Shown: positions 36,557 through 56,145 of the stretch, one piece after another | Numbering within the stretch: the stretch's first letter is position 1 | Layout of the letters: every line of letters begins with the position of its first letter | Source: Lobosporangium transversale | Lineage: Eukaryota | Reading direction: 5' to 3' | DNA length: 56,145 nt | Assembly (NCBI RefSeq): GCF_002105155.1 | Contig: NW_019029009.1 | Span: forward strand, 434,001 to 490,145 | Program-made: the position numbers and the translations under genes | Notes under the pieces: generated by a model | What the model was told of the DNA's origin: nothing | What the model saw: only the letters and a program-made list of their open reading frames with translations | Databases searched by the model: none

Positions 36557-36832
36557 AATATTCTTGGTAAAAACCTAGAACAAAAAAGAAGTAAACTAAA
36601 TATCAACACAATTGTTGAGTGCCCTACCGGCTCACCTTTGGCTCACCTTTTGATGAAAACAAACATTCATCTTTAATTCACAAAATTTTGGCTATTAATT
36701 ATTCTTTAAAAAAGCAGCGCCAAGTGCTGTACTGAAAGCTAAAAGACCACAATCAAAAGCACCACATCCGTATGACAATTATGCGAATCCTAAACCAAAC
36801 AGAAATCTTGGTTACAGAGGGCCTGAGCAAGG

Positions 36833-36866
36833 CTCGTCACCAGTCTGAGGACGAAGTTCATGTGCA
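36833..36866 (+). repeat. 34-bp CRN-unit terminal motif, copy 1 (CTCGTCACCAGTCTGAGGACGAAGTTCATGTGCA)
   Basis: 32/34 identical to 40710-40743; an expanded variant at 52570-52655. Confidence 0.85.
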
Positions 36867-37422
36867 CATGCACGTACTGAAAGGCAAATCTGGCTTGCTC
36901 TTGCAGACACTTCTCTCTCAGGCTGGGACCAAACTTGACATTTTGGCTGGAGGTCTCTTTTTTAAATTTGAAAAAATTCCCGAGTCGAAAGCATCTCCTG
37001 AAGCAACACCAGAGGTTAATAAGCCAAAAAAAGGTACAGCCATCTGATAAAGCCAACTCAAAAAATAGACGAATAACACGATCCAAGAGAATGGCATCAT
37101 AACGCTCATAGAGAGTATCGCAGAGGTTTTTTACTGGCAAAAAATAATAATCTGCACGTTGAGGTTTATTTTTTCCTCACAGGTTTTGTTTTTAATTTCC
37201 TGAGTGACAGAGATCATGTATAAGCAATATCAATTAGGTTAAAACATTGCACGCAGCACCACATTATCCGAGCATTTATTCATTTGTTTTCTATATATAA
37301 AGGTCCTATTTATGTGGGCTGGAGGGCTGCAATTAAACGAAATATGCAACAGCGGTTATGACGGGCCCTCAATAAGTATGTGTGTAGGACCGATTTAAAA
37401 GCGCTACCGCCTTTGTCTAAAG

Positions 37423-37617
37423 TGCAAGCGAAATCACTATAATAATTTTGTGCAACATAGTATTTCGCCCATATTTCTAGAGCATTCCTTGCAACAGGAC
37501 ATTAACTAGTATAAATAGGTCTACTTTTCTATCTAGTTCTGTAGCATAGTTCCCCCTGAATAAAGATACCTTTATTGCACCCTTAGATCCCCCTAGAACA
37601 CTACCTTGACTTTTGCA
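37423..37617. mobile_element. 195-bp solo LTR
   Basis: TGCAA...TTGCA ends and a 5-bp TSD TAAAG (37418-37422 / 37618-37622). Internal TATAAAT and AATAAA. The empty site GTCTAAAGGGTAAG is visible in the paralog at ~53192-53205. Confidence 0.85.
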
Positions 37618-37744
37618 TAAAGGGTAAGTGGATAATGATGGCTTCATTCATAAAGAATGAACCATTGTAAAAAATCCTCAAGGAACGGGTATAATGCTTT
37701 TTTTAAAAAAAGATAATTTTCCATCCACTTGATTGCTATTCGAT

Positions 37745-40191
37745 TTAATTCTCCAGATTCGTACCGGCTGATCCTCCTGAATATGCAGCTTCGATGTCGA
37801 TTTTTATGACACGCTGACTTACATGTTTTAAGCATTTATATGGATTCTTGACGACCGTATTTCTGGCGGTAAGAAAGTTCTGAACTTTAAAATCGCCATA
37901 TACGTCTCCTGGCACCACAAAATAGAGGAAAATATCATCACTTCCCTTCGACTTTGATCGGTCTGCAGTAATATAATCAATTATCTTCCTGAAGGGTGCT
38001 TGCTTGATCGGATGCTTCTCTGATACTGTGACCTGAAATAGCTCGTTGGGTCCCAATGCAAAATCAATGCACGGAAATTTAGAATGTTCTGGTACAAACA
38101 ACTTGCCAGCTGATTGAGTGAGCCCTGATAATTCCTCTGAAGTCCGGATAAACACCTCTTCTGGATTTGCTGGAAAATCAAGAAATCCTGTTTCGCCTGA
38201 CTGGAGATCCCTAAAGGGAAATCTAATATCACCACGTCGAAATAAGTGATGAGCATAGATTTCAAACAGTGGGCCTTTATCTATATCCTCTCCGCCTGTG
38301 ACAAGTTTCGCCAACACATCGACCCAAGTGTTATCTTTTATTTTGTCCATAATCTGTGATTCGACCCAACGAGATGCCCACACCAGGTAGAAGTCGAGAT
38401 GGTCAGAAGTGGGGACTCTATGGAGTAAACGACCACTAAATACACTCGCATCTTTTCCTCGTGCAAAGAGGCTTAGAAGATCTGCTGGTTTCTCGAGTGT
38501 ACTAATGGCATCGTTGACGCGGAGAAACGCAGCTTTTTTAGCACGCTCAGTATATTTTTGATTATCGGATAGTACGTCGGCTGGAGCCTGTAGAACCTGT
38601 CTTGGCACGCCCCCCAAGTCGTAAAAAAGCTCCTCCAAAAATGCTTCACTCACTACATGAAAAAACTTTACATTGGCTCTACATTCCTTAAGCTCATCCA
38701 GACTCCAGAGTGACATGTGATAGTAGCTATTTGGTGTATTTTCCTTGGTGAGTTCATCGTATTGCCCATAGAGAGTTCTTGGCGATGCTGAAAATATCGT
38801 CCTGGCTTCACCTGGTTGAGGATTTTTACCACTATCAACTAAATACCACGTTTCACGTTGGTCAAGGAAATTTTTGAAATCTACTCTCTCCCCATAACGT
38901 CGGCAAGTTGTTCCTCCGTAGGCATAACATTCGGTACTCTGCTTCTCATGGAAAATAATAATCGGTGGATTTTCCTCATCGTGTTCGGCAAGGAGGCGGA
39001 TGGCAAAATAGACCAAAAAGGCTGACTTCCCAATTCCAGGCGTTCCAGTGATAAAGAGTCGGTTCAAACGAGATACTTCATGAGGGGTACTTAATTTGGA
39101 TGTAATATGGTCATAAAGCTCTTTATATTCATCTCTGATATAAAGATGCCTTGTTTTAGCAATAGGGAAGATACGACCCTCAGGGGCAGTCAATATTTTG
39201 GAATCCTTGATACCACCAGAATTTCGGAGCTCGCAAGCCACGCTAATAATGCTGCAGTAAATACTATCTCCTGATAACTCCTTCCCCATGTACGAAAGCA
39301 GCTTGACCCTCTCTTTCGAGTTTAGAGGCGAGATTACAGGGCTACCATTCACTATCCCTTTCGTTACAAGCCCTGCTTCTGTAATCGCATCCCTAAGAGC
39401 ACTTCTGCTACTTATACTTGGATGAGCTTTTTTAGAGGGTGACTCTGCTAAAGGAGATAGAGTGATCAAAGTTAATATTTTTGATTTATTGCACTGCACA
39501 TCACTCTGAATTGATCAATAACCAGATTCTCGGCCAAAAGCACTCACCAGAATCTCCATCTTGTTTTCTTTTCTGACCTAAGTATCAAAAGCGAATAATG
39601 AGAAAGAACGTTGAGTTATCAAGACACAAACCAAATGGTGATATTATGCACATGGCCGTTTAAGATACAAACCAAGCTTCATCAGCTGAAAATATCAACA
39701 ATCAGTCCATCAAGAGCCAAGGATATACCTCGCTGTGGTGGCTTGACAAAAACATGGATAGTTTTCCTTGGAAGTTCAGAATTAAATATCTCCCAAAGCT
39801 CCATTGACGCGATTGTGAGAGCCTCTTTTGACTCGATTTCTGACTCAAAGATGGCCTCGCCTTTGTCAGGGATGGAGACCTTGTAGAGGGTGAGATCTTT
39901 GGGCTTAATGCTTGGATCCACAGTAATATTGGGGTAGATTGCTTGCTTGAGCATCCCGACCGATTTATCGCAGAAAATCTCTACTGGGAACGACGTTGCT
40001 TCTCCCTCGACAACGCAGTTCAGCAGTAGCAGTGCGCGCTTTTTTCGTTGTGGGCGCTGGTTTACTCTTTTTCGTTTATTGAGTGTGGAGGCATCCTCAG
40101 GCTTATTTGCAGTCATTTTTTTTTGTGCTTGGCTCTCTGTGGAATCATTTGCAGCCATGTTTTTTTGTGTTGAGCTCCTTGTGGTGGCCAT
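37745..40191 (-). CDS. CRN: Crinkler (CRN) effector copy A: ubiquitin-like header + P-loop NTPase + PD-(D/E)xK REase; exons 40191-39729, 39577-39548, 39447-37745; ~731 aa
   Basis: Header LNCVVEGEATSFPVEI...LTLYKVSIP...IHVFVKPP (LxLFLAK and HVLV equivalents). Walker A GTPGIGKS, Walker B WYLVD, LGGVPR. REase GPLFE...FPCIDF...LFQVTVSEKH. Confidence 0.9.
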
Positions 40192-40567
40192 TGAAAATTA
40201 AGATGAGTGGGACTGAGTGTGGTTGAAATGCAGGGAGAATGATGGTTAAATAGGCAAAGGTATATTCTTACTCTTTCACCCGTGGTCACGGTATGGAAAC
40301 AATAATGAAAAATGTGTAAGGCAAAAAAAAAAAGAAGGAAAGGAAAAGAAAGGCAATAAATGAAGGCTTGGAATGAATAAAAGAGGTAAGTGGTGAAATA
40401 TGAAAAAGGTGGCGAAAATGAAGTGGAGCAAAGGAAAGAAAGGAGCGACAACTGATAAATTTGTTCCTTTATTTCAAGGTTAGGCTTTTGCGTGAGAAAA
40501 TATTTTTTTCAAATCAGCCACGTGCCATTTTCTTGGTCATTGTGACGTGACAATCTTTAGTGCGCAG

Positions 40568-40686
40568 CAGAAGGTCAAGCTTGTCACTCTTTTTGGTTAG
40601 TCCTTTTCAGTTATAAGAATTTTGTTAAGTAAACCATTTATATTTGAAAGAGTCTAGCCAAAAAGAGCGACAAGCTTGACCCTCTG
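40568..40686. mobile_element. 119-bp MITE-like foldback element in the CRN A promoter
   Basis: ~49-bp imperfect TIRs (CAGAAGGTCAAGCTTGTCACTCTTTTTGG / CCAAAAAGAGCGACAAGCTTGACCCTCTG), flanked by GCGCA repeats. Absent from the right arm; partly present at the window end. Confidence 0.75.
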
Positions 40687-40709
40687 GCGCAAAGAACTCA
40701 TTTCTCAGT

Positions 40710-40743
40710 CTCGTCACCAGCCTGAGGACGAAGTTCATATGCA
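40710..40743 (+). repeat. 34-bp CRN-unit terminal motif, copy 2, at the palindrome centre
   Basis: CTCGTCACCAGCCTGAGGACGAAGTTCATATGCA; 2 mismatches versus 36833-36866. Confidence 0.85.
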
Positions 40744-41194
40744 GTTCTTTGCGCAATAAAGATTGTCACGTCACAATGACCCAGAAAATGGCACGTGGCT
40801 GATTTGAAAAAAATATTTTCTCACACATCGCCTAACCTTGAAATAAAGGAACAAATTTATCAGTTGTCGCTCCTTCTTTCCTTTGCTTCACTTCATTTTT
40901 TCACTCTCTCCCTCTTCCTTTACCCTTTTTTTTTTCACTTTTTTCATATTTCACCCCAGTTTTGCTCCCATCAATTTTGCTCTTTTATTTATTCCAAGCC
41001 TTCATCTATTGCCTTTCCTTTCCTTTCCTTTCCTTTCCTTTCCTTTCCTTTCCTTTTTTTTGCCTTACACATTTTTCATTTTTGTTTTCATACAGCGACC
41101 ACGAGTGTGAAAGAGTAAGAATATACCTTTGCCTATTTAACCATCATTCTCCCTGCATTTCAACCACACTCAGTCCCACTCATCTTAATTTTCA

Positions 41195-43656
41195 ATGGCC
41201 ACCACAAGGAGCTCAACACAAAAAACCATGGCTGCAAATGATTCCACAGAGAGCCAAGCACAAAAAAAAATGACTGCAAATAAGCCTGAGGATGCCTCCA
41301 CACTCAATAAACGAAAAAGAGTAAACCAGCACCCACAACGAAAAAAGCGCGCCATCCCACTGCTACTGCTGAACTGCGTTGTCGAGGGAGAAGCAACGTC
41401 GTTCCCAGTAGAGATTTTCTGCGATAAATCGGTCGGGATGCTCAAGCAAGCAATCTACCCCAATATTACTGTGGATCCAAGCATTAAGCCCAAAGATCTC
41501 ACCCTCTACAAGGTCTCCATCCCTGACAAAGGCGAGGCCATCTTTGAGTCAGAAATCGAGTCAAAAGAGGCTCTCACAATCGCGTCAATGGAGCTTTGGG
41601 AGATATTTAATTCTGAACTTCCAAGGAAAACTATCCATGTTTTTGTCAAGCCACCACAGCGAGGTATATCCTTGGCTCTTGATGGACTGATTGTTGATAT
41701 TTTCAGCTGATGAAGCTTGGTTTGTATCTTAAACGGCCATGTGCATAATATCACCATTTGGTTTGTGTCTTGATAACTCAACGTTCTTTCTCATTATTCG
41801 CTTTTGATACTTAGGTCAGAAAAGAAAACAAGATGGAGATTCTGGTGAGTGCTTTTGGCCGAGAATCTGGTTATTGATCAATTCAGAGTGATGTGCAGTG
41901 CAATAAATCAAAAATATTAACTTTGATCACTCTATCTCCTTTAGCAGAGTCACCCTCTAAAAAAGCTCATCCAAGTATAAGTAGCAGAAGTGCTCTTAGG
42001 GATGCGATTACAGAAGCAGGGCTTGTAACGAAAGGGATAGTGAATGGTAGCCCTGTAATCTCGCCTCTAAACTCGAAAGAGAGGGTCAAGCTGCTTTCGT
42101 ACATGGGGAAGGAGTTATCAGGAGATAGTATTTACTGCAGCATTATTAGCGTGGCTTGCGAGCTCCGAAATTCTGGTGGTATCAAGGATTCCAAAATATT
42201 GACTGCCCCTGAGGGTCGTATCTTCCCTATTGCTAAAACAAGGCATCTTTATATCAGAGATGAATATAAAGAGCTTTATGACCATATTACATCCAAATTA
42301 AGTACCCCTCATGAAGTATCTCGTTTGAACCGACTCTTTATCACTGGAACGCCTGGAATTGGGAAGTCAGCCTTTTTGGTCTATTTTGCCATCCGCCTCC
42401 TTGCCGAACACGATGAGGAAAATCCACCGATTATTATTTTCCATGAGAAGCAGAGTACCGAATGTTATGCCTACGGAGGAACAACTTGCCGACGTTATGG
42501 GGAGAGAGTAGATTTCAAAAATTTCCTTGACCAACGTGAAACGTGGTATTTAGTTGATAGTGGTAAAAATCCTCAACCAGGTGAAGCCAGGACGATATTT
42601 TCAGCATCGCCAAGAACTCTCTATGGGCAATACGATGAACTCACCAAGGAAAATACACCAAATAGCTACTATCACATGTCACTCTGGAGTCTGGATGAGC
42701 TTAAGGAATGTAGAGCCAATGTAAAGTTTTTTCATGTAGTGAGTGAAGCATTTTTGGAGGAGCTTTTTTACGACTTGGGGGGCGTGCCAAGACAGGTTCT
42801 ACAGGCTCCAGCCGACGTACTATCCGATAATCAAAAATATACTGAGCGTGCTAAAAAAGCTGCGTTTCTCCGCGTCAACGATGCCATTAGTACACTCGAG
42901 AAACCAGCAGATCTTCTAAGCCTCTTTGCACGAGGAAAAGATGCGAGTGGATTTAGTTGTTTACTCCATAGAGTCCCCACTTCTGACCATCTCGACTTCT
43001 ACCTGGTGTGGGCATCTCGTTGGGTCGAATCACAGATTATGGACAAAATAAAGGATGACACGTGGGTCGATGTGTTGGCGAGACTTGTCACAGGCGGAGA
43101 GGATATAGATAAAGGCCCACTGTTTGAAATCTATGCTCATCACTTATTTCGACGTGGTGATATTAGATTTCCCTTTAGGGATCTCCAGTCAGGCGAAACA
43201 GGATTTCTTGATTTTCCAGCAAATCCAGAAGAGGTGTTTATCCGGACTTCAAAGGAATTATCAGGGCTTACTCAAGCAGCTGGCAAGTTGTTTGTACCAG
43301 AACATTCTAAATTTCCGTGCATTGATTTTGCATTGGGACCCAACAAGCTATTTCAGGTCACAGTATCAGAGGAGCATCCGATCAAGCAAGCACCATTCAA
43401 GGAGATAATTGATTGTATTACTGGACCCTTGAAGGGAGACCAATCAAAGTCGAAGGGAAGTGATGATATTTTCCTCTATTTTGTGGTGCCAGGAGACGTA
43501 TATGGCGATTTTAAAGTTCAGAACTTTCTTACCGCCAGAAATACGGTCGTCAAGAATCCATATAAATGCTTAAAACATGTAAGACAGCGTGTCATAAAAA
43601 TCGACATCGAAGCTGCATATTCAGGAGGATCAGCCGGTACGAATCTGAAGAATTAA
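41195..43656 (+). CDS. CRN: Crinkler (CRN) effector copy B; exons 41195-41663, 41815-41844, 41945-43656; ~736 aa
   Basis: Same architecture and motifs as copy A. 30-nt micro-exon (GQKRKQDGDS); TAG-CAG tandem acceptor at intron 2. Basic NLS-like NKRKR and RKKR. Confidence 0.9.
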
Positions 43657-45165
43657 ATCGAATAGCAATCAAGTGGATGAAACTTTGTCTTTAAAAAAAA
43701 GCATTATACCCGTTCCTTGAGGATTTTTTACAATGGTTCATTCTTTATGAATGAAGCCATCATTATCCACTTACCTTCTAGACGAATAAATAGAGCGGTT
43801 TAATCCGTCCTCCCTTCTACTGGGGCATTTAGAACTTTATAAAGCTGTGATCATTGTGCGATCTTGTGTGCAAGAAAAGGCAGGATTTTGTGATACTATT
43901 ATCAAAGAGTTTTGTAAAAACGGATAGAGATGAAGAATCCTGTGGAGAACCCAGTGAGAGTCTGATGATGAGACCCAAAATCATATTATTATCACCAGGA
44001 CAGCTGGCATAGGAAATTATTCTTTCTCGTATGCTTTGTTATCTGGATGCTTGCCACTTGCGGAAGACCTATCAATTATCATCATCCAGGGCGCCAAAAC
44101 GTTTACCGGGAGCTAGGATGACAGCTCCACTCTAAAGACATAAATGTCCCATGGTGCGCGTGCACGGGATGGCAACCTGTGGCCAATGAGATCATATTAG
44201 TTGTATGTTCGGCCAATTCAATGTCAGTATGTGAAGGCGGCGCGTCTTGAATCTCTAGGCGTCCAGGGACATGGAATAAAAAAACATCAAGAATTTGGCC
44301 AAGGCTGCCACGCGCTTGACCGGTAAAATGTGATACGATATTGGATTGTGTCGTCAGTATATTAATAGTTCTCGGTATATTAATGCTACATGCTGCTGCT
44401 GAGGGCATCAATCTCGCCAGAATCATCCCCTCTCACATCAATTCATGCTAGACGGATGAAAGATTAGGAGGAAAAGGTCCTTGATGTCTGGGATATCCAC
44501 GCTTGTTTATAATCTCACCAAAAGTTCTGTGTCTTGCGTTCATAGGCGGTTAATCGCAGTTTGGTTTTCGTATACCCCTTGAAGAACGTAAGCAAAAATG
44601 CCTTTATGTTTTATATTTGATACTCATCAATTTACTTGTCCGAAGGTAGAATGACGCCTAGCCAATGGATGCTATATGCTTGGTCCTGTGGTCGTCTCCG
44701 TCCAATGATCACTATAATAGAGAACGTCATTGGACGTGCCGATGCAGGCCTTTGGAAGCAAGAAATCAAGGGCCTGGTGTGGTCGCTCACTGATCCGGGA
44801 TATAAAGAATCTGGTAACCTATGCCATGAGTAATCTAGAATTCTGAAGCGTATTAACAAAGGGGATGCAGGAATTAAAACCAGTGTCGACATCAGGGAAA
44901 CCTTCGGTCGAGCCGTAAAGAATGAATAGATTACTATATAGTAAAGACTTGATATTGGAGTACAATGAGCCTGTTCCGTCGAGGTTTCGTTTGCTTGAAT
45001 TGTCGTTAATCAAAGGAAGAAGGAGTTTACAATTATCGTTGAGCCAATATCATTTATAGCAGCAATTAACTTGTTTGAAGTGGATGACCCTTGATTGGCT
45101 AAATTGGTTAATAGTGTGTTGCTAGACGCCCCTACGTCTGGCACAAAGGGCACACATTATGAGTA

Positions 45166-47507
45166 GAGTCCTCGCCAAAAAGTCATAAACTGGATATATT
45201 TTTCAGGCTTTTAAATTGAATAGAATACTTCCACTTTTAGACGCAGGAAAAATACGTACAAACTCAAAATTTTAATTTTTACGAGAGCGTTTTCGATTGA
45301 TAAGAGGCTCGTCCTCAGACTCGCTATCCTCTATCACATTAAACATGCTTCCAGCATCTAGCGTAAGATCCACTATCTCAGGGCCTAGGGTAACAGCTTC
45401 AGCTCGCTCTTGATTTAGTACTCTAATGAGTTCTGCATCCCACTCACTATTGTCGACTTTGAAAGTGTCACTAAGGTCCACAATAGGCTCGTTTTCATCA
45501 AAAACCTCTTGATAAACCTCTTCGACTATTTCTTCCTGTGCATGACTCCTCTCGTTATAGTATCTCATGCCAATTTTCACAGACTTCTTCCATACAGAGT
45601 AAAAGACTTTACACGGAATCTGGGAAAACAAGCTTAGTAGCCTTTTTTTCAGCAAGATGGATGTCATTGTCACCATTGCTCTCGAGGCAATTATGTTTTT
45701 CACAACTGCCCAGATCTTCTCAATAGGTTGTAGCTCGCAATGGTAGGGTGGAGTCTTGAGGATTTCATGTCCACCATTCTCCTGGGCTATTTTACTGATA
45801 GAGAAATACGACTCATCAGGAAGAGCGTTAACCAATTCCATAAGCTCGTTTTTGTTCAGTGCTTTTCCATTTTCCCTTGTTGGAATAACAATCTCCTTGC
45901 CCGTGAGCCACTCTTTGATAGTTTTCACAGTGTCGCTCTTGGTTGGTTTCCTGTTTTTCTTGTGAAAGTGATATGAAGCGCCATCAAGATGGATTTTACA
46001 AGGGCCAAGTCCCATCTTATTGAGATTCTCACAAAGTCGCTTAAAGATACTATCGAACAAACTAGCGTTGAAGTTTCCATGATAATCGTGATCTGTTGCC
46101 ACGACCCCTGCATTCCTGATCTCCTCAGGTACGTCATCCCACAGTTCAGCCTCCTGCTCTTGGCCTTTTTTTGATTGAGGCATTGGTCCCTTTGATGGCC
46201 AAACATACACGCTATCATTAACGAATTTGCCTTCAACCTTTTTAGCAGCTTCATCATAATATACAATGAAGGCTGCAAATATAACCATGATTGGTTTCCT
46301 TCCTGCATCGTTAATGACACCACCGCCACTTTGCACCCAACGTCTTGCTGCAGCATGGTCAATGTGGCAGTAAGACTCGTCCAAGAAGACCTCTGGAGTC
46401 CTAGGCACCCAACTGCCGTCTACTAGTTTTAAATTCTTAAGACGGCGCTTCAGGTAAGTAGCTCGGAAGGCAATATTCTCCTTGGAGTCGTGCAAAAAGT
46501 TCTGTCGGATCCCTTTGCCCCAATACAGTCCCATTTTACGGAGGTCGCGAGTGATTGATCTTGCTGATCTGTCGATTTCAAAGTCTTCTTTCAGTTGGTT
46601 TGCAATTAAACCCGCAGAATTAGGAGTCCCGCTCTTGTTTGATTCAACTATGATATTCAGCACCTTCGAGTTTAAATCCTTGTCCGCTTCTTTTTTAGGG
46701 CGTCCAGTTCTTCCTCGCCCTGTCATTTCGACGATGCCTGTTTGTGCATATTTAATTGCTGCCACACAAGTGTTTCTCCCTACACCCATCAGAATCGAAA
46801 GGTCCATTGCTCTGTTGTCTGTCTTCTTAAACCAGTCTTGGACTGCTGGTGGCGCATTCATTATAGCATTATATGTATGAGCTATTATCGCGTATTCGTC
46901 TTTAGTAACGGACGCTTTACTGCGTGTAAATGCCTTTTTTCTCTCTCCAGTTTGTTTGTCTGACAAGAATGGATTTAAATCGAGGGTATTGGGACGCTCA
47001 CCGAATTGCTCTAATGAGGTAGAACTCCTTGGCTCGTTTCTGGGAGGAGTAATCCATTGATATTCGGTAGGAGACCTAATAGGGGAGAGATCGGCTTCAG
47101 TGGGCAGTTGTGGCGATCTTCGAGGCGAAGTGAAGGGTGTGCCTGAAATCATTTGGTCGATATTTCCTTCGCTATACCAACCACCAAGATCGTTGTATGA
47201 GAGTAGGTTATTGATATCAAAAGGGAAAGACATTTTACTATCTGAAGATTGCGAATAAAGTAGGTTGACAATGAGGATGAGATCGAGAATGAGATTGAGA
47301 ATGATGTTGCCCATTTCTCGCAAATTCTAATATTTCTAATTAAAAACGAAGATTGAATTGGTTTGGTGGCCATGCATCTAATTCATTCCTTCTATTCAAA
47401 AAATATATGCATTTTTGTCTTCGTACGTAAATTTTTATTTTTCAAATTTTTAATTCAAATTGAGTATTGTAAAATATATCCAGTTTATGACTTTTTGGCG
47501 AGGACTC
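45166..47507 (-). mobile_element. Intact IS630-Tc1-mariner DNA transposon, Sailor-like (DD87E), 2342 bp
   Basis: Perfect 37-bp TIRs GAGTCCTCGCCAAAAAGTCATAAACTGGATATATTTT (45166-45202 / 47471-47507). TA TSD at 45164-45165 and 47508-47509. One uninterrupted transposase ORF. Confidence 0.92.
45272..47314 (-). CDS. DDE transposase (ATG at 47314 or 47233)
   Basis: VFLDESY, IHLDGASYH and TPPYHCELQPIEKIW. 87 residues between the second D and E (hand count). GRPKK AT-hook-like linker; C-terminal RKRSRK. Confidence 0.92.
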   Translation of the reverse strand: MGNIILNLILDLILIVNLLYSQSSDSKMSFPFDINNLLSYNDLGGWYSEGNIDQMISGTPFTSPRRSPQLPTEADLSPIRSPTEYQWITPPRNEPRSSTSLEQFGERPNTLDLNPFLSDKQTGERKKAFTRSKASVTKDEYAIIAHTYNAIMNAPPAVQDWFKKTDNRAMDLSILMGVGRNTCVAAIKYAQTGIVEMTGRGRTGRPKKEADKDLNSKVLNIIVESNKSGTPNSAGLIANQLKEDFEIDRSARSITRDLRKMGLYWGKGIRQNFLHDSKENIAFRATYLKRRLKNLKLVDGSWVPRTPEVFLDESYCHIDHAAARRWVQSGGGVINDAGRKPIMVIFAAFIVYYDEAAKKVEGKFVNDSVYVWPSKGPMPQSKKGQEQEAELWDDVPEEIRNAGVVATDHDYHGNFNASLFDSIFKRLCENLNKMGLGPCKIHLDGASYHFHKKNRKPTKSDTVKTIKEWLTGKEIVIPTRENGKALNKNELMELVNALPDESYFSISKIAQENGGHEILKTPPYHCELQPIEKIWAVVKNIIASRAMVTMTSILLKKRLLSLFSQIPCKVFYSVWKKSVKIGMRYYNERSHAQEEIVEEVYQEVFDENEPIVDLSDTFKVDNSEWDAELIRVLNQERAEAVTLGPEIVDLTLDAGSMFNVIEDSESEDEPLINRKRSRKN

Positions 47508-48049
47508 TACTCACTGTAACAAAGACTCCATACATGAATCCAAGTTAATCTCGCTTTTTTTTGTTTTGTTTCCAAAAGAGAACCCATCTGGACCAGATAT
47601 CATTTTTGTATTAGAATCGGAGGGTAAATATTATCCTGGTTCCGTACAGTCAAAAATCGGCGAGAAGGTCAAGAATTAAGGATGCCCACAATACAACTTG
47701 CCATAATTGCATCAAAGAACACCTCTCATCACCGTCTTCTCTCGGCTTTTGCTCGAATGGCATATCCTTGTTGCTGTTGTTTAGGCCTTACTTATCACGT
47801 TGCCTTATCATGTTGCCTTATCACGAACAGGGTGATTATTCGCTAGCTAAAGTCAAAGAAGTTCCTACCATCAAAGACAAACGAATAGAAACGACGTACT
47901 CAATATTAGCTTGTTGAACTTCCTTGAAAGTGCAAGGGAGTCCCTCAAGAAGTCAGAATTGACTCGAGCTGTGGAGGATGAGGGAGAAGGAAGCAAGCCC
48001 AAAGAACCACAGGCAAGGAGGACATCAAAGAGAATTGCCGATAAAGCTC

Positions 48050-48535
48050 AAGCTATGGAGCATCGCCCTAGCTCATGGAATATGAGTCCAACGTTTTCAA
48101 GAAGTTTGGGGCTCCTCTTCCAGTTTATGTTTGCGTAGTCTTCATCAGTCAGGTCTTCACCGGCTGCCTTTAAAACACGCCGTGTTAAAGAACCCTTGTG
48201 AAAGTTTCAATCCCTGGCTGAGATCTTCTTCATCTACGTCAGACTGCTGCTATCTCTTCGTCTGGATTGTGCCATAGGCAAGTGGATTCAGAACAAGGCC
48301 ATTGGTAGAATCGTCCCTTTGAGTTTGAACCGAGTTATACCTTTGTCTTGTGCCTGTAGGGGTACCTTGTCTCGATAGCCATGAAACATGCGATCTCCTT
48401 CAATGTCACAAAGAGAGCCTGTATCTAGACCTCTTTTGTTCCCTGTACACATTCAAACACTGCAGCCTTGGGAGGATTGTCGAGAGGATGTCAGTTAGAA
48501 CGTGTTCAGACAGATACACATACCGAGGGGGGACG
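48050..48535 (-). pseudogene. Fanzor remnant 2 (pre-RuvC segment)
   Basis: Across frameshifts: RYVYLSEHVLTDIL...RFKLKGTI/TNGLVLNPLAYGT...NINWKRSPKLLENVGLIF. Matches RKLRTSFFTNGLTLTLLAYDT...GINWKQRSRLLENVEVKY of the + strand copy. Confidence 0.7.
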
Positions 48536-48546
48536 TAAGGAAGTCT

Positions 48547-48577
<31 letters not shown>

Positions 48578-49399
48578 CATTCCATTGTTCTCTGGCAAGA
48601 AAAGCTCATCGAACAATAAAAAAATAGAGAGCTTTAATAGAGAGCAATCGACTGCAGAATATGCATGAGGATTCTCTACACAAAGTTATATCTTTGTGCT
48701 CCTGTGGTGAATACATGGGTAGATTTGACTCGGTCTGTAGGAACTGATTTGAAACAGGTGGCTACATCCTTGTCAAAGGTAACAACAAAAGAAAAAAAGT
48801 CTTCTTTCTTCTTTTTATCAGAGAATGGCTTCATATGATGCTCTTTGCTCCAACAGCTCCACCAATGGAAAGGCTTGTGTTTTAGCAAAATGTGTTTGTG
48901 CATGTACAGAAACAAAAGAGATGCTTCAGCTGCTTATTCGTGCACACAGTGATTGACGAACAAAAAAGGAAAAAGCCCGCGATAAAAGAAGGCATATGCA
49001 GACAACAAATAAACAAACTGTTTGCTCACATACATTTTTTTCACCGTTGTGTCTGTAACTCTTCTAAGCTTTCTGTCTGGCCGTTTAACACAAGGAACCC
49101 TCAGAAAAAGAAATACCTCGCATGATTGGTGCCAGGTCTGAAAACAACAATAATGCAATGCTGTACGTGGAAGATAGGGTCTAGAAACTATACCATTGAT
49201 CACAACTGCTACTCATGCTCTCTTGCCAAGGACTTGAACAGGCATACCAACCCCTTCTTCCTTGCTCTCATAACCGCTCACATCCTTTCGATGCATTCTT
49301 TCGCCGTTTATGTCCACTACATCTGAACCACACACAGTTCACCACTCACTCCAACAGAGATATTTGTATCACCTTGGGTATGATATGTTGCTGTGGTTC

Positions 49400-51021
49400 C
49401 CTCTGGTTTCAACAGGCCCAACAAACTCTATTAGCAGTGTTTATCAACCCAAATACATCAAGGGAACGCAAGAAGACGAGTAGGCAAATGATGCGACAAA
49501 TCAAGTCTCGTCGAGCTGTACAGAAAAAGATCAAGTTAGTCAGGCTGTAGAACGAATCAACTCAGATTGCCTCAATCATACGACGAATATTATCATCACT
49601 ATATCACATCAATCAATCAATAAACGATACAATGAGGCCCCCCAAGCGGACAATGGAGTCATGCGAAAGTCTTCATGAGTATTATGGTCTAACCCAACAG
49701 TTCGAGAGGAAATAGTCCAATTGTTGGAACTAAACATGAGTACCAAGGGGGCTGCAGAGGACAAGATCCTTAACCACAAGGGGATATTGTTGCAGGAGCT
49801 GTTTTCCTTGAAAGGATACAAGGACGTTGGACTGCAACCTGATGATGGCCCTAGAAGGAAACTACGGACATCGTTCTTTACAAACGGCCTTACCCTAACA
49901 CTTCTTGCCTATGACACATCGAAGCAAAAAAGAGGTAGAGGTTCGCAAGCTGCCCAACCTTCGGATACTCAAAGATCTCAAGCAGTCCAGGCTTCTTCAA
50001 GTGCTCAGCAGGGATCCTCGTCTTCAGGCCATGGTGCAGGCGATGGTGGTGATGATGGAGACGACGACGGAAATGAAGATGACGATATCTTGCTGGGTAT
50101 CAGCGATATTGACTTGCTGGAAGTTGATGAACCATTCTTAGATGGCGACGAGGGAGAAGAAGCAGCTGAAGAAGGTACATCGAGCACAAATCCACTGTCC
50201 CCGGTGAGTCCCAGTCCCCGGCGTGGGATCAACTGGAAGCAGAGATCCCGTCTCCTCGAGAATGTAGAAGTTAAATATGACACCCAGGCAGCATGGGACC
50301 AGTGACGACAATAAGGAGACTATATATAGGGCGCTTGTCGATTTCTATAATGACGGGTGGTTTGTTCGGAATAGCTGGGATAATAGAAAAGCACAGAACG
50401 GATGGGTTGATTATGTGATCAAGGCAATTCTGAAGCTTGCGGGCGGAAGCAATGGAAGAAGAAGAGATGCCAATACGAATGCGGTGATCTGTATTGGACT
50501 AGGATCATTCAAGACAAACCGAGGACAAGTATCGAAGCATGGGATATTGATGAAGAAGCTTGTTGAAAAGGTAAAAAAAAAATCCCTTGATCAATGACAT
50601 TTAATTTTTGAGTCTTTTTTTTAACGAGTATTAAATCTGGCTCGAACAGGCAAAATCTCTAGACTACCCCATTGCAGGTTGTCATGAATACTACACATCT
50701 GCCAAGTGTCCACGGCCTCACTGCGACAGTATATTGGAGAATGTTCCTTTTCGATCCAAGTACTGTCGAAATTGTAAAGCATACTTTGATCGAGATGCTG
50801 TTGGTGCTGAGAACATCGCAAGGGTCTGTGAGTCGCAGACAAGAGAGCAAAAACGACCTGCAAAAATATATGCCGCCGGACGAATGTGGGACACACATCC
50901 TTGGGTGTATATCGATCTATATCAATATCTATATGTCAATCAATGTCTACTATGTCTATACATATCACATCGCGTCAATCAAGATGTATTATCTCGATCC
51001 CTCCATCTCAAATGGATATAG
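49400..51021 (+). pseudogene. Fanzor1-like (TnpB/IS605-OrfB family) RNA-guided nuclease remnant 3; intron 50571-50649; RuvC-I region deleted near 50300
   Basis: SFFTNG motif. VICIGLGSFKT...SKHGILMKKLVEK|AKSLDYPIAGCHEYYTSAKCPRPHC...RSKYCRNCKAYFDRDAVGAENIARV, i.e. RuvC-II E (50686), a four-Cys zinc finger and the RuvC-III DRD..GAENI motif. 5' limit approximate. Confidence 0.85.
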
Positions 51022-51130
51022 CCCGTTCCATTTGGTCGCGATCCCTTATATTTTTTGAATACTCTTAAATGTAATGGCAGCCAATTGACTCGCTTGTTAT
51101 TGCAAGTGGTGTGACTGGTCATTAAAATTA
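50960..51130 (+). ncRNA. Candidate Fanzor omegaRNA scaffold / element right end
   Basis: Lies at the 3' end of the Fanzor ORF. Stems ATCGCG(50969)/CGCGAT(51037), CAAATGGA(51009)/TCCATTTG(51027), and an imperfect hairpin 51072-51124. Positional and structural inference only. Confidence 0.35.
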
Positions 51131-52431
51131 TTTTGTATCCACTAATCTGTCGAGCCAGCTAAAGGAATCTTTGCGCAAAGCCTTTGTAGTCATAGGCGGG
51201 TCCGCCTCACCTAGAAACTACCGAGTTATAAAAGCCAAAGAAACTTCCTTCTTAATAAAGTCTTCAGTTTTCCCCATATGTCCTTATTCTTCACCTGCAG
51301 TTCATCTTGCCATTTATCTTTTTCCCCTTTTCACAACAAGCATTTGTCTTCCGGTAACTCAGTTTGTGAGCTCACCTATAAAGCTCCCATCTTTTTGACA
51401 TTCCTATGGTGCTGTTTGTAGTCAAGGTTATTTGACTCTATTTTCTCTTGTCAATCTTGTTGACACTCTTTTGTCCTGCCTTATTCCTGATTGTGTCTAT
51501 CTTTCTGTCCCTTAAGCAAAGATATTTTTTACAACAATGCCACCAAGCAATTTATTTAGGATTAAGATATGTGGGGTCTATATGTTGTCTAAATAGTCCT
51601 CCCCATAAAAAAAACACCATCTAGACCAAGCATAGAAATAAAGAGATTAGTCAAGAAAGCACTGTCAAGCTAATACTTACAACTTTTTCAAGACGAAGGT
51701 CTTTCCCGACCTAGTCATGTTTGTAGTAGCTCATGAAAAATTTTAGACAGACAAATAGTAACCAGGGAGCAGAAGTGAGAATAGGATGTGGGTTCACACA
51801 TCACATCCATGGGGCATTTATCCAAATTTGTATCAAAATAAAACTGTAAGTTTGTATCGGGCACCACACCATGGGGCATAGAGCCGTTAGTATGTCTGTA
51901 TTATAAATCTTCATGTAACACGTGTACTGTGAAATATGCAACTGATCTATCCATTGTTGTTGCCGGCTTGGTGTCTTTCTCCCCATGGATTCAACGAAGG
52001 CTATTTTGATATCTCGAGTTTGGACTCAACCTGTCAGTGAGCATTGGTGCAAGCATATAAGGCACACAGGCTGTTGACGAGCCTACTTCTCACCTTCACC
52101 GTTTGACGCAGGTCAGGGTTGTGACGGTCTAGCGAAGAAAACGTAAGGGCATTAACAATATCAGGATCGCATTAGACGGTAGTTGTGGTATTTGCAGATG
52201 AAAATAGGGAAGAACTGCGCAAACCCAGCGGATCCAAATAAAAGAAAAGGTGAGTCGACTCAAGCGGAGGACAACAAGTCCAATAGGCCAAGCAGGGATA
52301 AGGGACCAAGGAAAAAGTAGCGATCGTTTCTTTTACTTCTTTTTGCTCGCCATTGTTTATGACAATGGCACAGACCACAATTTTGTAATATAGCACTAAT
52401 AGATAAATTAAAATATCGCTATTTCAATAAA

Positions 52432-55400
52432 CCTGAGCAAGGAGAAGTGAGCACACCAAGCGGATTGCCGCAGCTGCATCATCAGAATTTTCTCAAGCAA
52501 GTGGCAAGTTGTTTTTATGAGTGGCGGAATAGGAATCCTCTCTCAAATGAATTGCCATTTGACGATAGGCTCGTCACTAAGAGCGGACAATTTGCCTTGC
52601 AGCACGTTCATTCGCTGCAGGTGGCTTCGACCTCTGGTGACGAAGTTCATGTGCACATGCACGTACTGAAAGGCAAATCTGGCTTGCTCTTGCAGACACT
52701 TCTCTCTCAGGCTGGGACCAAACTTGACATTTTGGCTGGAGGTCTCTTTTTTAAATTTGAAAAAATTCCCGAGTCGAAAGCATCTCCTGAAGCAACACCA
52801 GAGGTTAATAAGCCAAAAAAAGGTACAGCCATCTGATAAACCAACTCAAAAAATAGACGAATAACACGATCCAAGAGAATGGCATCATAACGCTCATAGA
52901 GAGTATCGCAGAGGTTTTTTACTGCAAAAAATAATAATCTGCACGTTGAGGTTTATTTTTTCCTCACAGGTTTTGTTTTTAATTTCCTGAGTGACAGAGA
53001 TCATGTATAAGCAATATCAATTAAGTTAAAACATTGCACGCAGCACCACATTATCCGAGCATTTATTCATGTTTTCTATTATAAAGATCCTATTTATGTG
53101 GGTGGAGGGCTGCAATTAAACGAAATATGCAACAGCGTTATGACGGCCCTCAATAAGTAGGTAGGACCGATTTAAAAGCGCTATCGCCTTTGTCTAAAGG
53201 GTAAGTGGATAATGATGGCTTCATTCATAAAGAATGAACCTTGTAAAAATTTCTCAAGGAACAGGTATATAAAGACAACTTTCCATCCACTTGATTGCTA
53301 TTCGATTTAATTCTTCAGATTCGTACCGGCTGATCCTCCTGAATATGCAGCTTCGATGTCGATTTTTATGACACGCTGTCTTACATGTTTCAAGTATCCA
53401 GGTATTGCCTTGGCATCCTGACTATCGTTAATAACAACTTCTGAACCTTAAAATTATCATATATGTAACCTGGCACCCAAAATAGAGGAAAATAGTATCA
53501 TCGCTTCCCTTCAGCTTTGATTGGCCTTCATTCAAGCAGGGTCCAGTAATACAATCAATTATCTCCTTGAATGGTGCTTGCTTGATCGGATGCTCCTCTG
53601 ATACTGTAACCTGAAATAGCTTGTTGGGTCCCAATGCAAAATCAATGCACGGAAAGTTGGGTATAGATGGTAGAAACAACTTGTCTGTTGTTTTTGGAGA
53701 ATGTTGAAAAAATCTGCTGTAGTCCTGGGTAAATAATACATCCGAGGAGTCCCTCGGAAGATCAAAGAATCCTGTTTCGTCTGATTGAAGATCCTTAAAT
53801 GGAAACCTAAGTCACCACATCGAATTAAATAGTGAACATAGAGTTCAAACGAAGCTCCTTTTTCTATTTCACTGCCAACTTCGACAAGTCGCTTCAACAC
53901 GTCGATCCAAGTCTGATCTTCTAACTTCATGATGATCCGCGATCGAACATAAGGAGATGCCCATACAGGTGGAAGTGGAGGTGGTCAGAAGTGGGACTCT
54001 ATGGAGTAAAACAACTACCCGCTTCATCTCCTTCTCTAAAGAGGTCTGAAAGATTGCTTGGGAGCCAGGTACGCGAATGGCATCATTGACGTGGAATAAC
54101 GCAGCTGCTTTAGCACGCTCAGTATGTCTTGATTTTTGGATAGTACATTGGCTGGACACTTAGAACCTGTCTTGGCACGCCCCCCAAGTAGTAAAAAAGC
54201 TCCTCCAAAAATGCTTCACTCACTACATGAAAAAACTTTACATTGGCTCTACATTCCTTAAGCTCATCCAGACTCCAGAGTGACATGTGATAGTAGCTAT
54301 TTGGTGTATTTTCCTTGGTGAGTTCATCGTATTGCCCATAGAGAGTTCTTGGCGATGCTGAAAATATCGTCCTGGCTTTACCTGGTTGAGGATTTTCACC
54401 ACTATCAACTAAATACCACGTTTCACGTTGGTCAAGGAAATCTTCGAACATCGTTATTTCCCTTTACGTTGCAAGTTGTTCCTCATACTGATACGTCTAA
54501 TTGGTATGCTGCTTCTCTTGGAAAATAATAATCGGTGGATTTTCCTCATCGTGTTCGGCAAGGAGGCGGATGGCAAAATAGACCAAAAAGGCTGACTTCC
54601 CAATTCCAGGCGTTCCAGTGACAAAGAGTCGGTTCAAACAAGGTACTTCATGAGGGGTACTTAATTCGGATGTAATATGGTCATAAAGCTCTTTATATTC
54701 ATCTCTGATATAAAGATGCCTTGTTCCGGCAACAGGGAAGATACAACCCTCAGGGGCAGTCAAATTTTGGAACCTTGATACCACCAGAATTTCGGAGCTC
54801 GCAAGCCACGCTAATAATGCTGCAGTAAATACTATCTCTGATAACTCCTCCCCATGTACGAAAGCAGCTTGACCCTCTCTTTCGAGTTTAGAGGCGAGAT
54901 GCAGGGTCACCATTCACTATCCCTTTCGTTACAAGCCCTGCTTCTGTAATCGCATCCTAAGAGACCTCTGCTACCTATACTTGGACGAGCTTTTTTAGAG
55001 GGTGACTCTGTAAAGGAGATAGAGTGATCAAGTCAATATTTTTGATTTATTGCACATCACTCTAAAATGATCAATAACCAGATTCTCGGCCAAAAGCACT
55101 CACCAGAATCTCCATCTTGTTTTCTTTTCTGACCTAAGTATCAAAAGCGAATAATGAGAAAGAACGTTGAGTTATCAAGACACAAACCAAATGGTGATAT
55201 TATGCACATGGCCGTTTAAGATACAAACCAAGCTTCATCAGCTGAAAATATCAACAATCAGTCCATCAAGAGCCAAGGATATACCTGCTGTGGTGGCTTG
55301 ACAAAAACATGGATAGTTTCCTTGGAAGTTCAGAATTAAATATTCCCAAGCTCCTTGACGCGATTGTGAGGCCTCTTTTGACTCGATTTCTGACTCAAAG

Positions 55401-56145
55401 ATGGCCTCGCCTTTGTCAGGGATGGAGACCTTGTAGAGGGTGAGTGGTCAGCGCAATATCCTTAATGCATGGCTTCTCTGTTTTGAATGGCTTGCTTGAG
55501 CATCCCGACCGATTTATCGCAGAAAATCTCTACTGGGAACGACGTTGCTTCTCCCTCGACAACGCAGTTCAGCAGTAGCAGTGGGATGGGCGCTTTTTTC
55601 GTTGTGGGCTGGTTTACTCTTTTTCGTTTATTGAGTGTGGAGGCATCCTCAGGCTTATTTGCAGTCATTTTTTTTTGTGCTTGGCTCTCTGTGGAATCAT
55701 TTGCAGCCATGTTTTTTTGTGTTGAGCTCCTTGTGGTGGCCATTGAAAATTAAGATGAGTGGGACTGAGTGTGGTTGAAATGCAGGGAGAATGATGGTTA
55801 AATAGGCGAAGGTATATTCTATACTCTTTCACACCGTGGTCGCTGTATGAAACAAAATGAAAAATGTGTAAGGCAAAAAAAAAAAAAAGGAAAGAAAGGA
55901 AGGAATAAGGAAGGCAAATTGATGAGAAAAATGGGGTGCAAATGATGAAAAAGGACTTTATTTCAGTTAGGCGACGTGTGAAAAATAATTTTTTTCAAAT
56001 CAGCCACGTGCCATTTTCTGGTCATTGTGACGTAAATCTTTGCGGCAAGCGAGGTAAGTCTTTTCAATTTTTGTTAAGTAAACCATTTAAATATTTGAAA
56101 GAGTCTAGCCAAAAAGAGCGACAAGCTTGACCCTCTGGCGCAAAG
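52432..56145 (+). repeat. Direct duplicate of the CRN A unit (36822-40694), lacking the solo LTR
   Basis: Shares CCTGAGCAAGG, the terminal motif, the 3' flank (DEVHVHMHVLKG... ORF text identical), the CRN gene, the promoter and the MITE right half. Confidence 0.9.
53307..55743 (-). pseudogene. CRN: Crinkler copy C, frameshifted as assembled
   Basis: Header, GTPGIGKS, LGGVPR and FPCIDFALGPNKLFQVTVS are present but broken by many, mostly 1-bp, deletions. Confidence 0.85.

Follow-up and report, generated by a model that had tools for sequence, protein, structure and literature searches.

The stretch of DNA analysed here (56,145 nt of contig NW_019029009.1 of Lobosporangium transversale, assembly GCF_002105155.1, positions 434,001 to 490,145 of the forward strand; hereafter the window, with coordinates counted from its first letter) contains, from 36.8 kb rightward, three copies of a Crinkler (CRN) gene, A, B, and C, which lie on the minus, plus, and minus strands, respectively. 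Crinkler proteins, familiar chiefly as effectors with which oomycete plant pathogens kill host cells, are abundant also in harmless soil fungi. In this window the genes belong to a repeated cassette of ~3.9 kb, which consists of a 37-nt motif, a 0.55-kb tail, the Crinkler gene, and ~0.5 kb of upstream sequence (table 1). Our comparisons lend some support to the view that the CRN cassette has an end that is defined and repeated and may be mobile. This is what we retain of the mobile CRN unit proposed in a preliminary description of the window, and not the transposon with terminal inverted repeats (TIRs) that was built there on a particular pair of motifs.

Two uninterrupted copies of the motif, A and S, are identical at 34 of 37 positions (92%). 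The 34-mers of the preliminary description (32/34 identical), placed there at 36833 and 40710, were confirmed by direct reading, and a 29-nt pattern with up to three mismatches allowed matched exactly two sites on the two strands of the window, a number that none of 100 shuffled sequences reached. Both copies lie on the plus strand and are thus direct repeats, 3,877 bp apart; a reading as direct repeats flanking copy A, which had been mentioned as an alternative, therefore holds. The expanded variant noticed 3' of CRN C is real as well. Its two pieces, AGGCTCGTCAC at 52567 and GACGAAGTTCATGTGCA at 52639, are exact matches to copy A, and the ~58 nt that split them hold an inverted copy of the adjoining interior sequence (52590-52607 versus 52678-52661, 16/18 positions). 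The homology between cassettes A and C, said to start near the motif, begins in C at the motif itself. In four copies (A, S, C, and a probable fourth, D, described below) the outer edge reads AG(G/T)CTCGTC, preceded by A, C, T, and T, respectively, and the flanks beyond it are unrelated: the only homology found among them outside the edge was a low-complexity A-rich match. They share no direct repeat beside the edge, in agreement with the absence of a target-site duplication (TSD) reported earlier. That one and the same motif edge bounds homology four times is not easily explained by local duplication through random breakage. Two metagenome scans, one with the motif (N at two variable sites) and one with a 38-nt stretch on which the three CRN copies agree fully, returned 0 loci.

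Table 1. Features of the CRN locus and its surroundings in the window (coordinates are those of the window)
Feature	Position	Strand	Remarks
Motif copy A	36830-36866	+	AGGCTCGTCACCAGTCTGAGGACGAAGTTCATGTGCA; outer cassette edge, 3' of CRN A; A/C homology ends here; unrelated DNA to the left
Perfect 12-bp palindrome	36859-36870		CATGTGCACATG; read directly, self-inverted match 12/12
Tail block, 0.55 kb	36830-37383	-	Between CRN A 3' flank and motif; common to C (96.6-100%), absent from B
A-only insertion, ~200 bp	37418-37617		TAAAG on either side; ends TGCAAG.../...CTTTTGCA; from the A/B/C alignment
Palindrome left arm, high-identity part	37618-40566	-	CRN A side
CRN A	37745-40191	-	Exon 1 ~39682-40191, intron ~39515-39681, exon 2 37745-39514; frame intact
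Foldback resembling a miniature inverted-repeat transposable element, 120 nt	40567-40686; also in C, ~56040-56140 (partly deleted)		49-nt arms, 84%; DNA fold z -8.6
Palindrome centre	40687-40754		GCGCAAAGAACT (40687-40698) and AGTTCTTTGCGC (40743-40754) around a 44-nt spacer; fold z -4.75
Motif copy S (centre)	40707-40743	+	Same orientation as copy A; 5' of CRN B; directly abuts CRN A upstream end
Palindrome right arm with CRN B	40750-43780	+	Weak A/C homology continues to ~43818, then ends
CRN B	41195-43656	+	Exon 1 41195-41710, exon 2 41893-43656; frame intact
DDE transposon, complete-looking	45160-47513	- (684-residue frame, 45272-47326)	PF13358 DDE_3, E-value 2.3e-6, slightly below cut-off
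Fanzor/TnpB-like gene	49679-51021	+	Three frame pieces
Motif copy D, probable, degenerate	52067-52084, with weak tail-interior match 52011-52053	-	Reverse complement AGGCTCGTCAACAGCCTG; inverted relative to A, S, and C
Motif copy C	52567-52655	+	Interrupted by ~58 nt
Cassette C	52567-56145	-	Tail block and CRN pseudogene; leaves the window 3 nt before the end of the arm 12-mer

One arm of a ~3-kb palindrome is formed by CRN A and the other by CRN B, and motif copy S lies at its centre. The arms align over 3034 nt at 95.3% identity (40750-43775 versus 40566-37623 reversed) and include a core of 1603 nt at 100% (38432-40034 versus 41358-42960); outside this core the identity amounts to 95-97% and drops to ~70% at the outer tips, where the homology of B stops near 43818. 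Once the foldback inserted in A has been set aside, the inner arm ends lie at 40698 and 40743, and copy S fills the spacer between them, in which CAT (40699-40701) can pair with ATG (40739-40741), three bases more pairing. Copy S thus belongs equally to the upstream side of CRN A, relative to which it is antisense, like the copy at the 3' end of that gene. Moreover, the A/C homology extends ~550 bp beyond the A/B homology and reaches the motif edge at 96.6-100%, while that of B stops short of it. CRN A therefore stands in its native cassette context, and CRN B looks like a truncated inverted copy.

The foldback is found in the upstream regions of both A and C, with TGCGC/GCGCA on both sides, and CRN B has at this place an uninterrupted empty site (TTTGCGCAATAAAG). 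Because it is present in the diverged C but not in the near-identical B, upstream and coding regions must have different histories. CRN C is a pseudogene, its frame being broken into at least five pieces with 26 frame-breaking indels relative to A. In blocks of 100 alignment columns, the A/C identity alternates between 99-100% and 68-73%; stretches in which pseudogene C is identical to both A and B reach 219 nt and take in the entire intron (167/167). Gene conversion among the CRN copies is evident, to judge from these alignments. The ~200-bp insertion found in A only, possibly a small transposon that made a 5-bp duplication, is located exactly where the high A/B identity ends.

A fourth copy of the motif, D, is probable. 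Scanning with half motifs retrieved AGGCTCGTCAACAG on the minus strand (52071-52084, one mismatch), and the two best matches in the region downstream of the Fanzor-like gene are an 18-mer (E-value 0.18) and a 44-nt match to the tail interior (E-value 0.025; 52011-52053 versus 36941-36900, 72.7%), which are collinear. When the whole window was scanned in tiles with the outer 121 nt of A, the tile containing D scored 25.7, and the best unrelated one among 2,798 tiles scored 19.3. We grade D as probable only, because neither match is significant singly; the collinear pair and the tile score speak in its favour, so that D may well be a true, degenerate motif copy. It sits 482 bp from C, in inverted orientation. 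With the palindrome centre and the split motif of C, three inverted-duplication signatures are thus seen at the motif.

Exon 1 of CRN A encodes the Crinkler header domain (PF20147; E-value 1.5e-15, 58.2 bits for a cut-off of 24.6), and exon 2 of the CRN genes encodes a P-loop nucleoside triphosphatase (NTPase) followed by a 180-residue C-terminal nuclease-like domain. Between A and B only substitutions and in-frame indels are found (508/510 and 1745/1764 positions identical). The Walker residues (G157-x2-G160-I-G162-K163-S164 and D227) are invariant or nearly so in 24 aligned homologues. The NTPase domain is predicted to adopt an AAA+/STAND-like ATPase fold (predicted local distance difference test, pLDDT, 84.8), and its model retrieved 74 PDB chains at an E-value of 0.001 or below, AAA+/STAND ATPases coming first (ClpA/ClpC/Lon, NLRC4) and RuvB and the archaeal ATPase 2fna lower. 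For the model of the C-terminal domain (pLDDT 88.7; D484, Q494, T496, and S498 conserved in the 24 homologues), most of the top rows in VIA-align are nucleases of the restriction-endonuclease (REase) fold, namely R.BspD6I, McrC, NucS, BstEII, SgrAI, Cfr10I, BglII, and FokI, with weak scores (best Z 4.6). Foldseek gave no match to this model at an E-value of 0.001 or below, and a sequence search of the PDB with exon 2 gave 0 matches at an E-value of 1 or below. The C-terminal domain may have a restriction-endonuclease (PD-(D/E)xK) fold. BLASTP restricted to proteins of near-equal length found 91 homologues, all from Mortierellomycotina and relatives, the best being 54% identical. No protein matching CRN A or B was found in a database of 5.8 billion, in searches that were limited by length and word: that 54% protein was the best of the near-length search, and P0094, at 73%, was the only match among longer proteins. 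CRN A and B thus appear to have no public gene models.

A protein of this composition raises the possibility that the cassette moves itself, the CRN NTPase-nuclease cutting at the motif and driving its copying. The intact frames of A and B, the invariant Walker A and B residues, the mostly REase-fold structural neighbours, and the seemingly recurrent breaks at the motif would suit such an activity, and NTPase-REase pairs have been linked to prokaryotic transposable elements (Zhang et al. 2016, as cited in PMC5289972). However, no integrase, DDE, or HUH activity is encoded, the structural matches are those weak ones just described, the copies, apart from the conversion tracts, are old and C has become a pseudogene, and nothing ties the CRN protein to the sequence of the motif. 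We consider this explanation most improbable. That the cassette would be a selfish unit mobilised by its own motif-cutting nuclease, whose breaks would also have given rise to the fold-backs, and as such a eukaryotic survivor of the proposed transposon ancestry, appears very unlikely. Nor did we find anything in support of the CRN protein as a transposase, a role suggested in the preliminary description.

The motif and its tail are also found elsewhere in the genome, as protein searches indicate indirectly. The open frame 52363-52833, which runs through the motif, is 100% identical to the annotated L. transversale protein BCR41DRAFT_372566, and a search of 1.84 billion representative proteins with the motif-tail frame gave two matches, this protein and BCR41DRAFT_370194 of the same species, both of which contain ...EDEVHVHMHVLKGKSG.... 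The latter, P0093, is encoded on a different scaffold and reads ...KPEDEVHVHMHVLKGKSG...ISQKK, which corresponds to the motif's inner portion together with at least 190 nt of the tail, the recurring part being the outer ~190 nt. Its sequence before and after the shared stretch is unrelated, and the frame shifts within the shared DNA. The presence of inner motif and tail on a second scaffold indicates that both have been dispersed. One might object that the motif is just a piece of a plus-strand coding exon, shared by these two annotated genes and repeated along with a gene family; open frames do cross it in A and C, and two annotated proteins contain its peptide. Yet both matches come from this one species and no Pfam family was found at an E-value of 1 or below, so that the peptide is not that of a conserved protein. 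Furthermore, the three frames are unrelated upstream of the motif, and P0093 switches frame inside the shared DNA. A coding exon is hardly credible as an explanation of the motif, and on the first two grounds we rejected the motif as a mere exon. Short species-specific frames through the tail (P0092, P0093) have been annotated, and the intact CRN A and B apparently have not.

A third scaffold provides a link with Helitrons. When longer proteins were searched with CRN exon 1, the sole match was P0094 (BCR41DRAFT_402185, 1156 residues), whose residues 1-664 form a full CRN with header, NTPase, and nuclease-like domain. They are 68-76% identical to A and B, which is the level seen in the unconverted parts of A and C. 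P0094 carries the Crinkler header domain and a weak P-loop match to PF07999 RHSP (E-value 8e-4), and its gene model continues into a Helitron Rep domain (PF14214 Helitron_like_N, E-value 1.1e-17). This Rep has an HUH-type motif (PHQH) and a YKY motif. Two arrangements are conceivable: a Helitron carries a CRN that immediately precedes its Rep gene, or it inserted just behind a CRN.

The reading to which we incline, tentatively and somewhat short of an even chance, is that of an end-defined CRN cassette multiplied by likely Helitron-type copying, on which fold-back duplication and gene conversion then acted. The cassette would have been copied by a process that recognises its ends, Helitron-type rolling-circle capture being the best candidate, with the Helitron Rep supplied in trans. 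The centre copy would represent the initial 37 nt of a further cassette, formerly adjacent to A in head-to-tail arrangement. This neighbour of A may have broken near the centre of its 12-bp palindrome CATGTGCACATG, the broken end folding back on the CAT/ATG microhomology and copying A into B; the match of the centre copy to copy A indeed ends 2 nt beyond the centre of that palindrome. The split motif of C and the inverted D could represent smaller events of the same fold-back kind, and gene conversion would later have homogenised arms and copies. In this scheme the CRN protein, with its P-loop NTPase and likely REase-fold domain, would be cargo rather than transposase.

Helitron-type copying is favoured because no TSD is seen, which fits rolling-circle elements, because variously truncated copies share one end, because of the head-to-tail junction, and because there is a precedent in Phytophthora infestans. 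Of these copies, which have a common or near-common outer end, the centre copy measures 37 nt, D ~75-110 nt, the P0093 copy at least 190 nt, and A and C each 0.55 kb. In P. infestans, the DC-type CRN genes are reported to lie in Helitron-rich regions and to form tail-to-head arrays (Haas et al. 2009, as cited by Amaro et al. 2017; PMC5289972). As far as that account goes, the two cases are alike in the local multiplication of NTPase/nuclease CRNs, in the head-to-tail junction, and in the link with Helitrons, provided here by P0094. They differ in that L. transversale is a saprotrophic member of the Mortierellomycotina and not an oomycete pathogen, that there is no Helitron gene in the window, that copies are palindromic, and that the ends are non-canonical. 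The absence of a TSD, the short end inverted repeats, the hairpin-like end sequence, the tandem or truncated copies, and the solo termini also recall fungal Helitron2 elements, which are described as having terminal inverted repeats and terminal hairpins and as occurring in tandem or truncated copies (Chellapan et al. 2016; PMC5148889).

Several observations weigh against this interpretation. The residues of P0094 that carry the Rep (665-1156) gave no tblastn match in the window at an E-value of 1 or below. Helitron termini (5'-TC and CTRR-3') and an AT/TT insertion site were not seen at the four junctions, a comparison that used canonical ends and hence might miss a lineage-specific variant; nor did we find CTRR at a common distance from the motif edge, or any insertion-site preference among the four flanks. 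As described, the Fusarium Helitron2 has a 3' inverted repeat of 12-16 bp, located 20-50 bp inside the 3' end, and starts with TCAG or TGCCT (PMC5148889), whereas the repeat of the cassette is 37 nt long, terminal, and starts with AGGC or AGTC. The motif is not significant as a stand-alone hairpin (DNA fold z -0.23), and the idea of a structural hairpin was rejected on this value and on that of the expanded form in C (z -1.31). Both matches that define D are unremarkable when taken alone, the 18-mer lying within the shuffled null of a 500 x 500 nt comparison and the interior match being equalled by 13 of 200 real-sequence controls. Finally, the 5' end of the cassette is defined only once, at the centre copy, and the full copies are confined to 20 kb, as local duplication would explain too.

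Local duplication is indeed the most serious competitor, although we regard it as rather doubtful. The copies would result purely from segmental duplication by breakage and repair within this 20-kb region, the motif with its 12-bp palindrome being a fragile, hairpin-prone break site at which duplication ends and fold-back junctions accumulate, and the tail on the other scaffold an unrelated stray fragment. Besides the clustering of the full copies, the three inverted-duplication signatures agree with this, as do the end of the centre copy at the centre of a perfect palindrome and the absence from the window of a TSD, of a transposase in the cassette, and of a Helitron gene. Fold-back inverted duplications are documented at DNA breaks in yeast (PMC11724301, PMC10164571), where breaks gain templated inverted duplications of 5-34 bp by foldback (PMC11724301). 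Going by these reports, the short-spacer palindrome and the 3-nt microhomology at the arm ends are comparable, and the ~26-nt inverted duplication in the C motif is within the reported size range; those cases, however, are laboratory or tumour events, whereas here the event is old, the arms have since been gene-converted, and the mechanism is read from sequence only. What is difficult for this explanation is the edge. A, C, and the centre copy have unrelated DNA beyond an identical edge, which independent random breaks would not reuse to the base, and the palindrome is ~30 nt away from this common edge. The occurrence of the tail on a second scaffold, and of a CRN paralogue beside a Helitron Rep on a third, also speaks against it.

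Elsewhere in the window, the left 35 kb carries ordinary fungal genes (PH-domain, GST, ornithine cyclodeaminase, OPT transporter, catalase, F-box/LRR, and Pumilio). Between CRN B and cassette C lies a complete-looking DDE transposon with 46-nt TIRs (45160-45205/47468-47513, 98% identical), in which the catalytic surroundings VFLDES, HLDGAS, and HCELQPIE resemble the published Sailor (DD82E) consensus (PMC8533490), a superfamily that, according to the same source, was first noted in L. transversale. The motif was rejected as an end of this Sailor-like element, whose TIRs are unrelated to it. A 13-nt motif-like match at 45309-45321 falls inside the transposase frame (codons for SEDE) and was judged to be due to chance. 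The last piece of the Fanzor-like gene (50635-51021) matches PF07282 Cas12f1-like TNB (E-value 1.2e-6, 29 bits for a cut-off of 26.3) and contains CxxC...CxxC and a DRDAVGAENI stretch; terminal repeats of this gene were searched for and not found. The gene is located between CRN B and copy D and has the orientation of CRN B. An Rfam scan gave 0 matches at the gathering score, and a tRNA scan 0 genes.

These data also bear on the reading of the cassette as a TIR transposon. The preliminary description took the motifs at 36833 and 40710 for the TIRs of a unit of ~3.7-3.9 kb; they are direct repeats, the second of which is the spacer of the palindrome. It was right as to the positions, the motif lying in sense 5' of CRN B and in antisense 3' of CRN A, but the two form an inverted pair only if the 3' end of A is joined to the 5' end of B. 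The TIR picture arises from this joining of ends that belong to two different gene copies. Pattern and half-motif scans revealed neither an inverted motif at the 5' end of CRN A nor any motif beside the end of the CRN B homology (~43820), so that a unit with the motif at both ends adjoining the gene can be demonstrated for neither A nor B. The cassette encodes no transposase, its only product being the CRN protein, and the TIRs of the adjacent DDE_3 element are unrelated to the motif.

The idea can be amended if S and D are taken as the 5' and 3' TIRs, respectively, of an element 40707-52084, which would carry CRN B and later nested insertions and would depend on a transposase acting in trans; the 5' TIR of A would have been lost in a collapse of the palindrome centre. 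S and D (40707/52084) are the sole inverted pair in the window and point inward around CRN B from the two ends of an interval of 11.4 kb that holds CRN B, the Sailor-like DDE transposon, and the Fanzor-like gene. TTCTC, the best candidate for a TSD, is found directly left of S (40702-40706) and 2 nt to the right of D (52087-52091); at the four copies taken together no TSD of fixed length was found. Fish offer a precedent, since hAT or mariner TIRs are reported to flank their Crinkler-like AACRNL genes (Xu et al. 2026; PMC12957317). As described, that case resembles the present one in that a Crinkler-family gene is proposed to ride the ends of a neighbouring transposon, and in that pseudogenes share one flank with an active copy. 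The fish TIRs, however, match known hAT and mariner families, whereas here the motif matches no known element that we found, the pair originally named is direct, and the adjacent mariner-type (Sailor-like) element has unrelated TIRs. In addition, D is degenerate and 8 kb away from the end of the CRN B homology, and no convincing tail homology was found between that end (~43820) and 52011. The pentamer, offset by 2 nt, could be due to chance, A and C each display one end only, and a transposase that matches the motif did not turn up in the window. Even head-to-head units at zero distance would still require an event that forms the palindrome. We therefore consider the amended TIR element, with its assumed loss of the TIR of A, improbable.

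The Helitron-type and TIR readings make distinct predictions for the DNA just past the end of the window, where cassette C is interrupted after ...GGCGCAAAG. If the head-to-tail arrangement is true, AACTCATTTCTC and then the motif in plus orientation would follow; a TIR would instead give AACT and then the reverse complement of the motif.

Published work already describes the multiplication of Crinkler genes with the assistance of transposable elements, namely Helitrons in oomycetes (PMC5289972) and hAT/mariner TIRs in fish (PMC12957317), so that the present case is no new kind of system. Among the listed publications that pair Crinkler with Mortierella, none is concerned, by its title and the start of its abstract, with the mobility of CRN genes in these fungi. 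The locus displays the growth of a Crinkler family in a fungus of the Mortierellomycotina at base resolution, with a fixed-end cassette, two intact genes in a palindrome that gene conversion has kept near-identical, a dead third copy that still trades patches with them, and a paralogue set against a Helitron Rep. Should the Helitron-end reading fail, the motif would be a natural recurrent breakpoint that seeds inverted duplications. If, on the other hand, the motif does end a Helitron-type element, then fungal as well as oomycete genes for Crinkler NTPase-nucleases would be cargo of Helitrons, which would point to a general route for the multiplication of toxin-like Crinkler genes.

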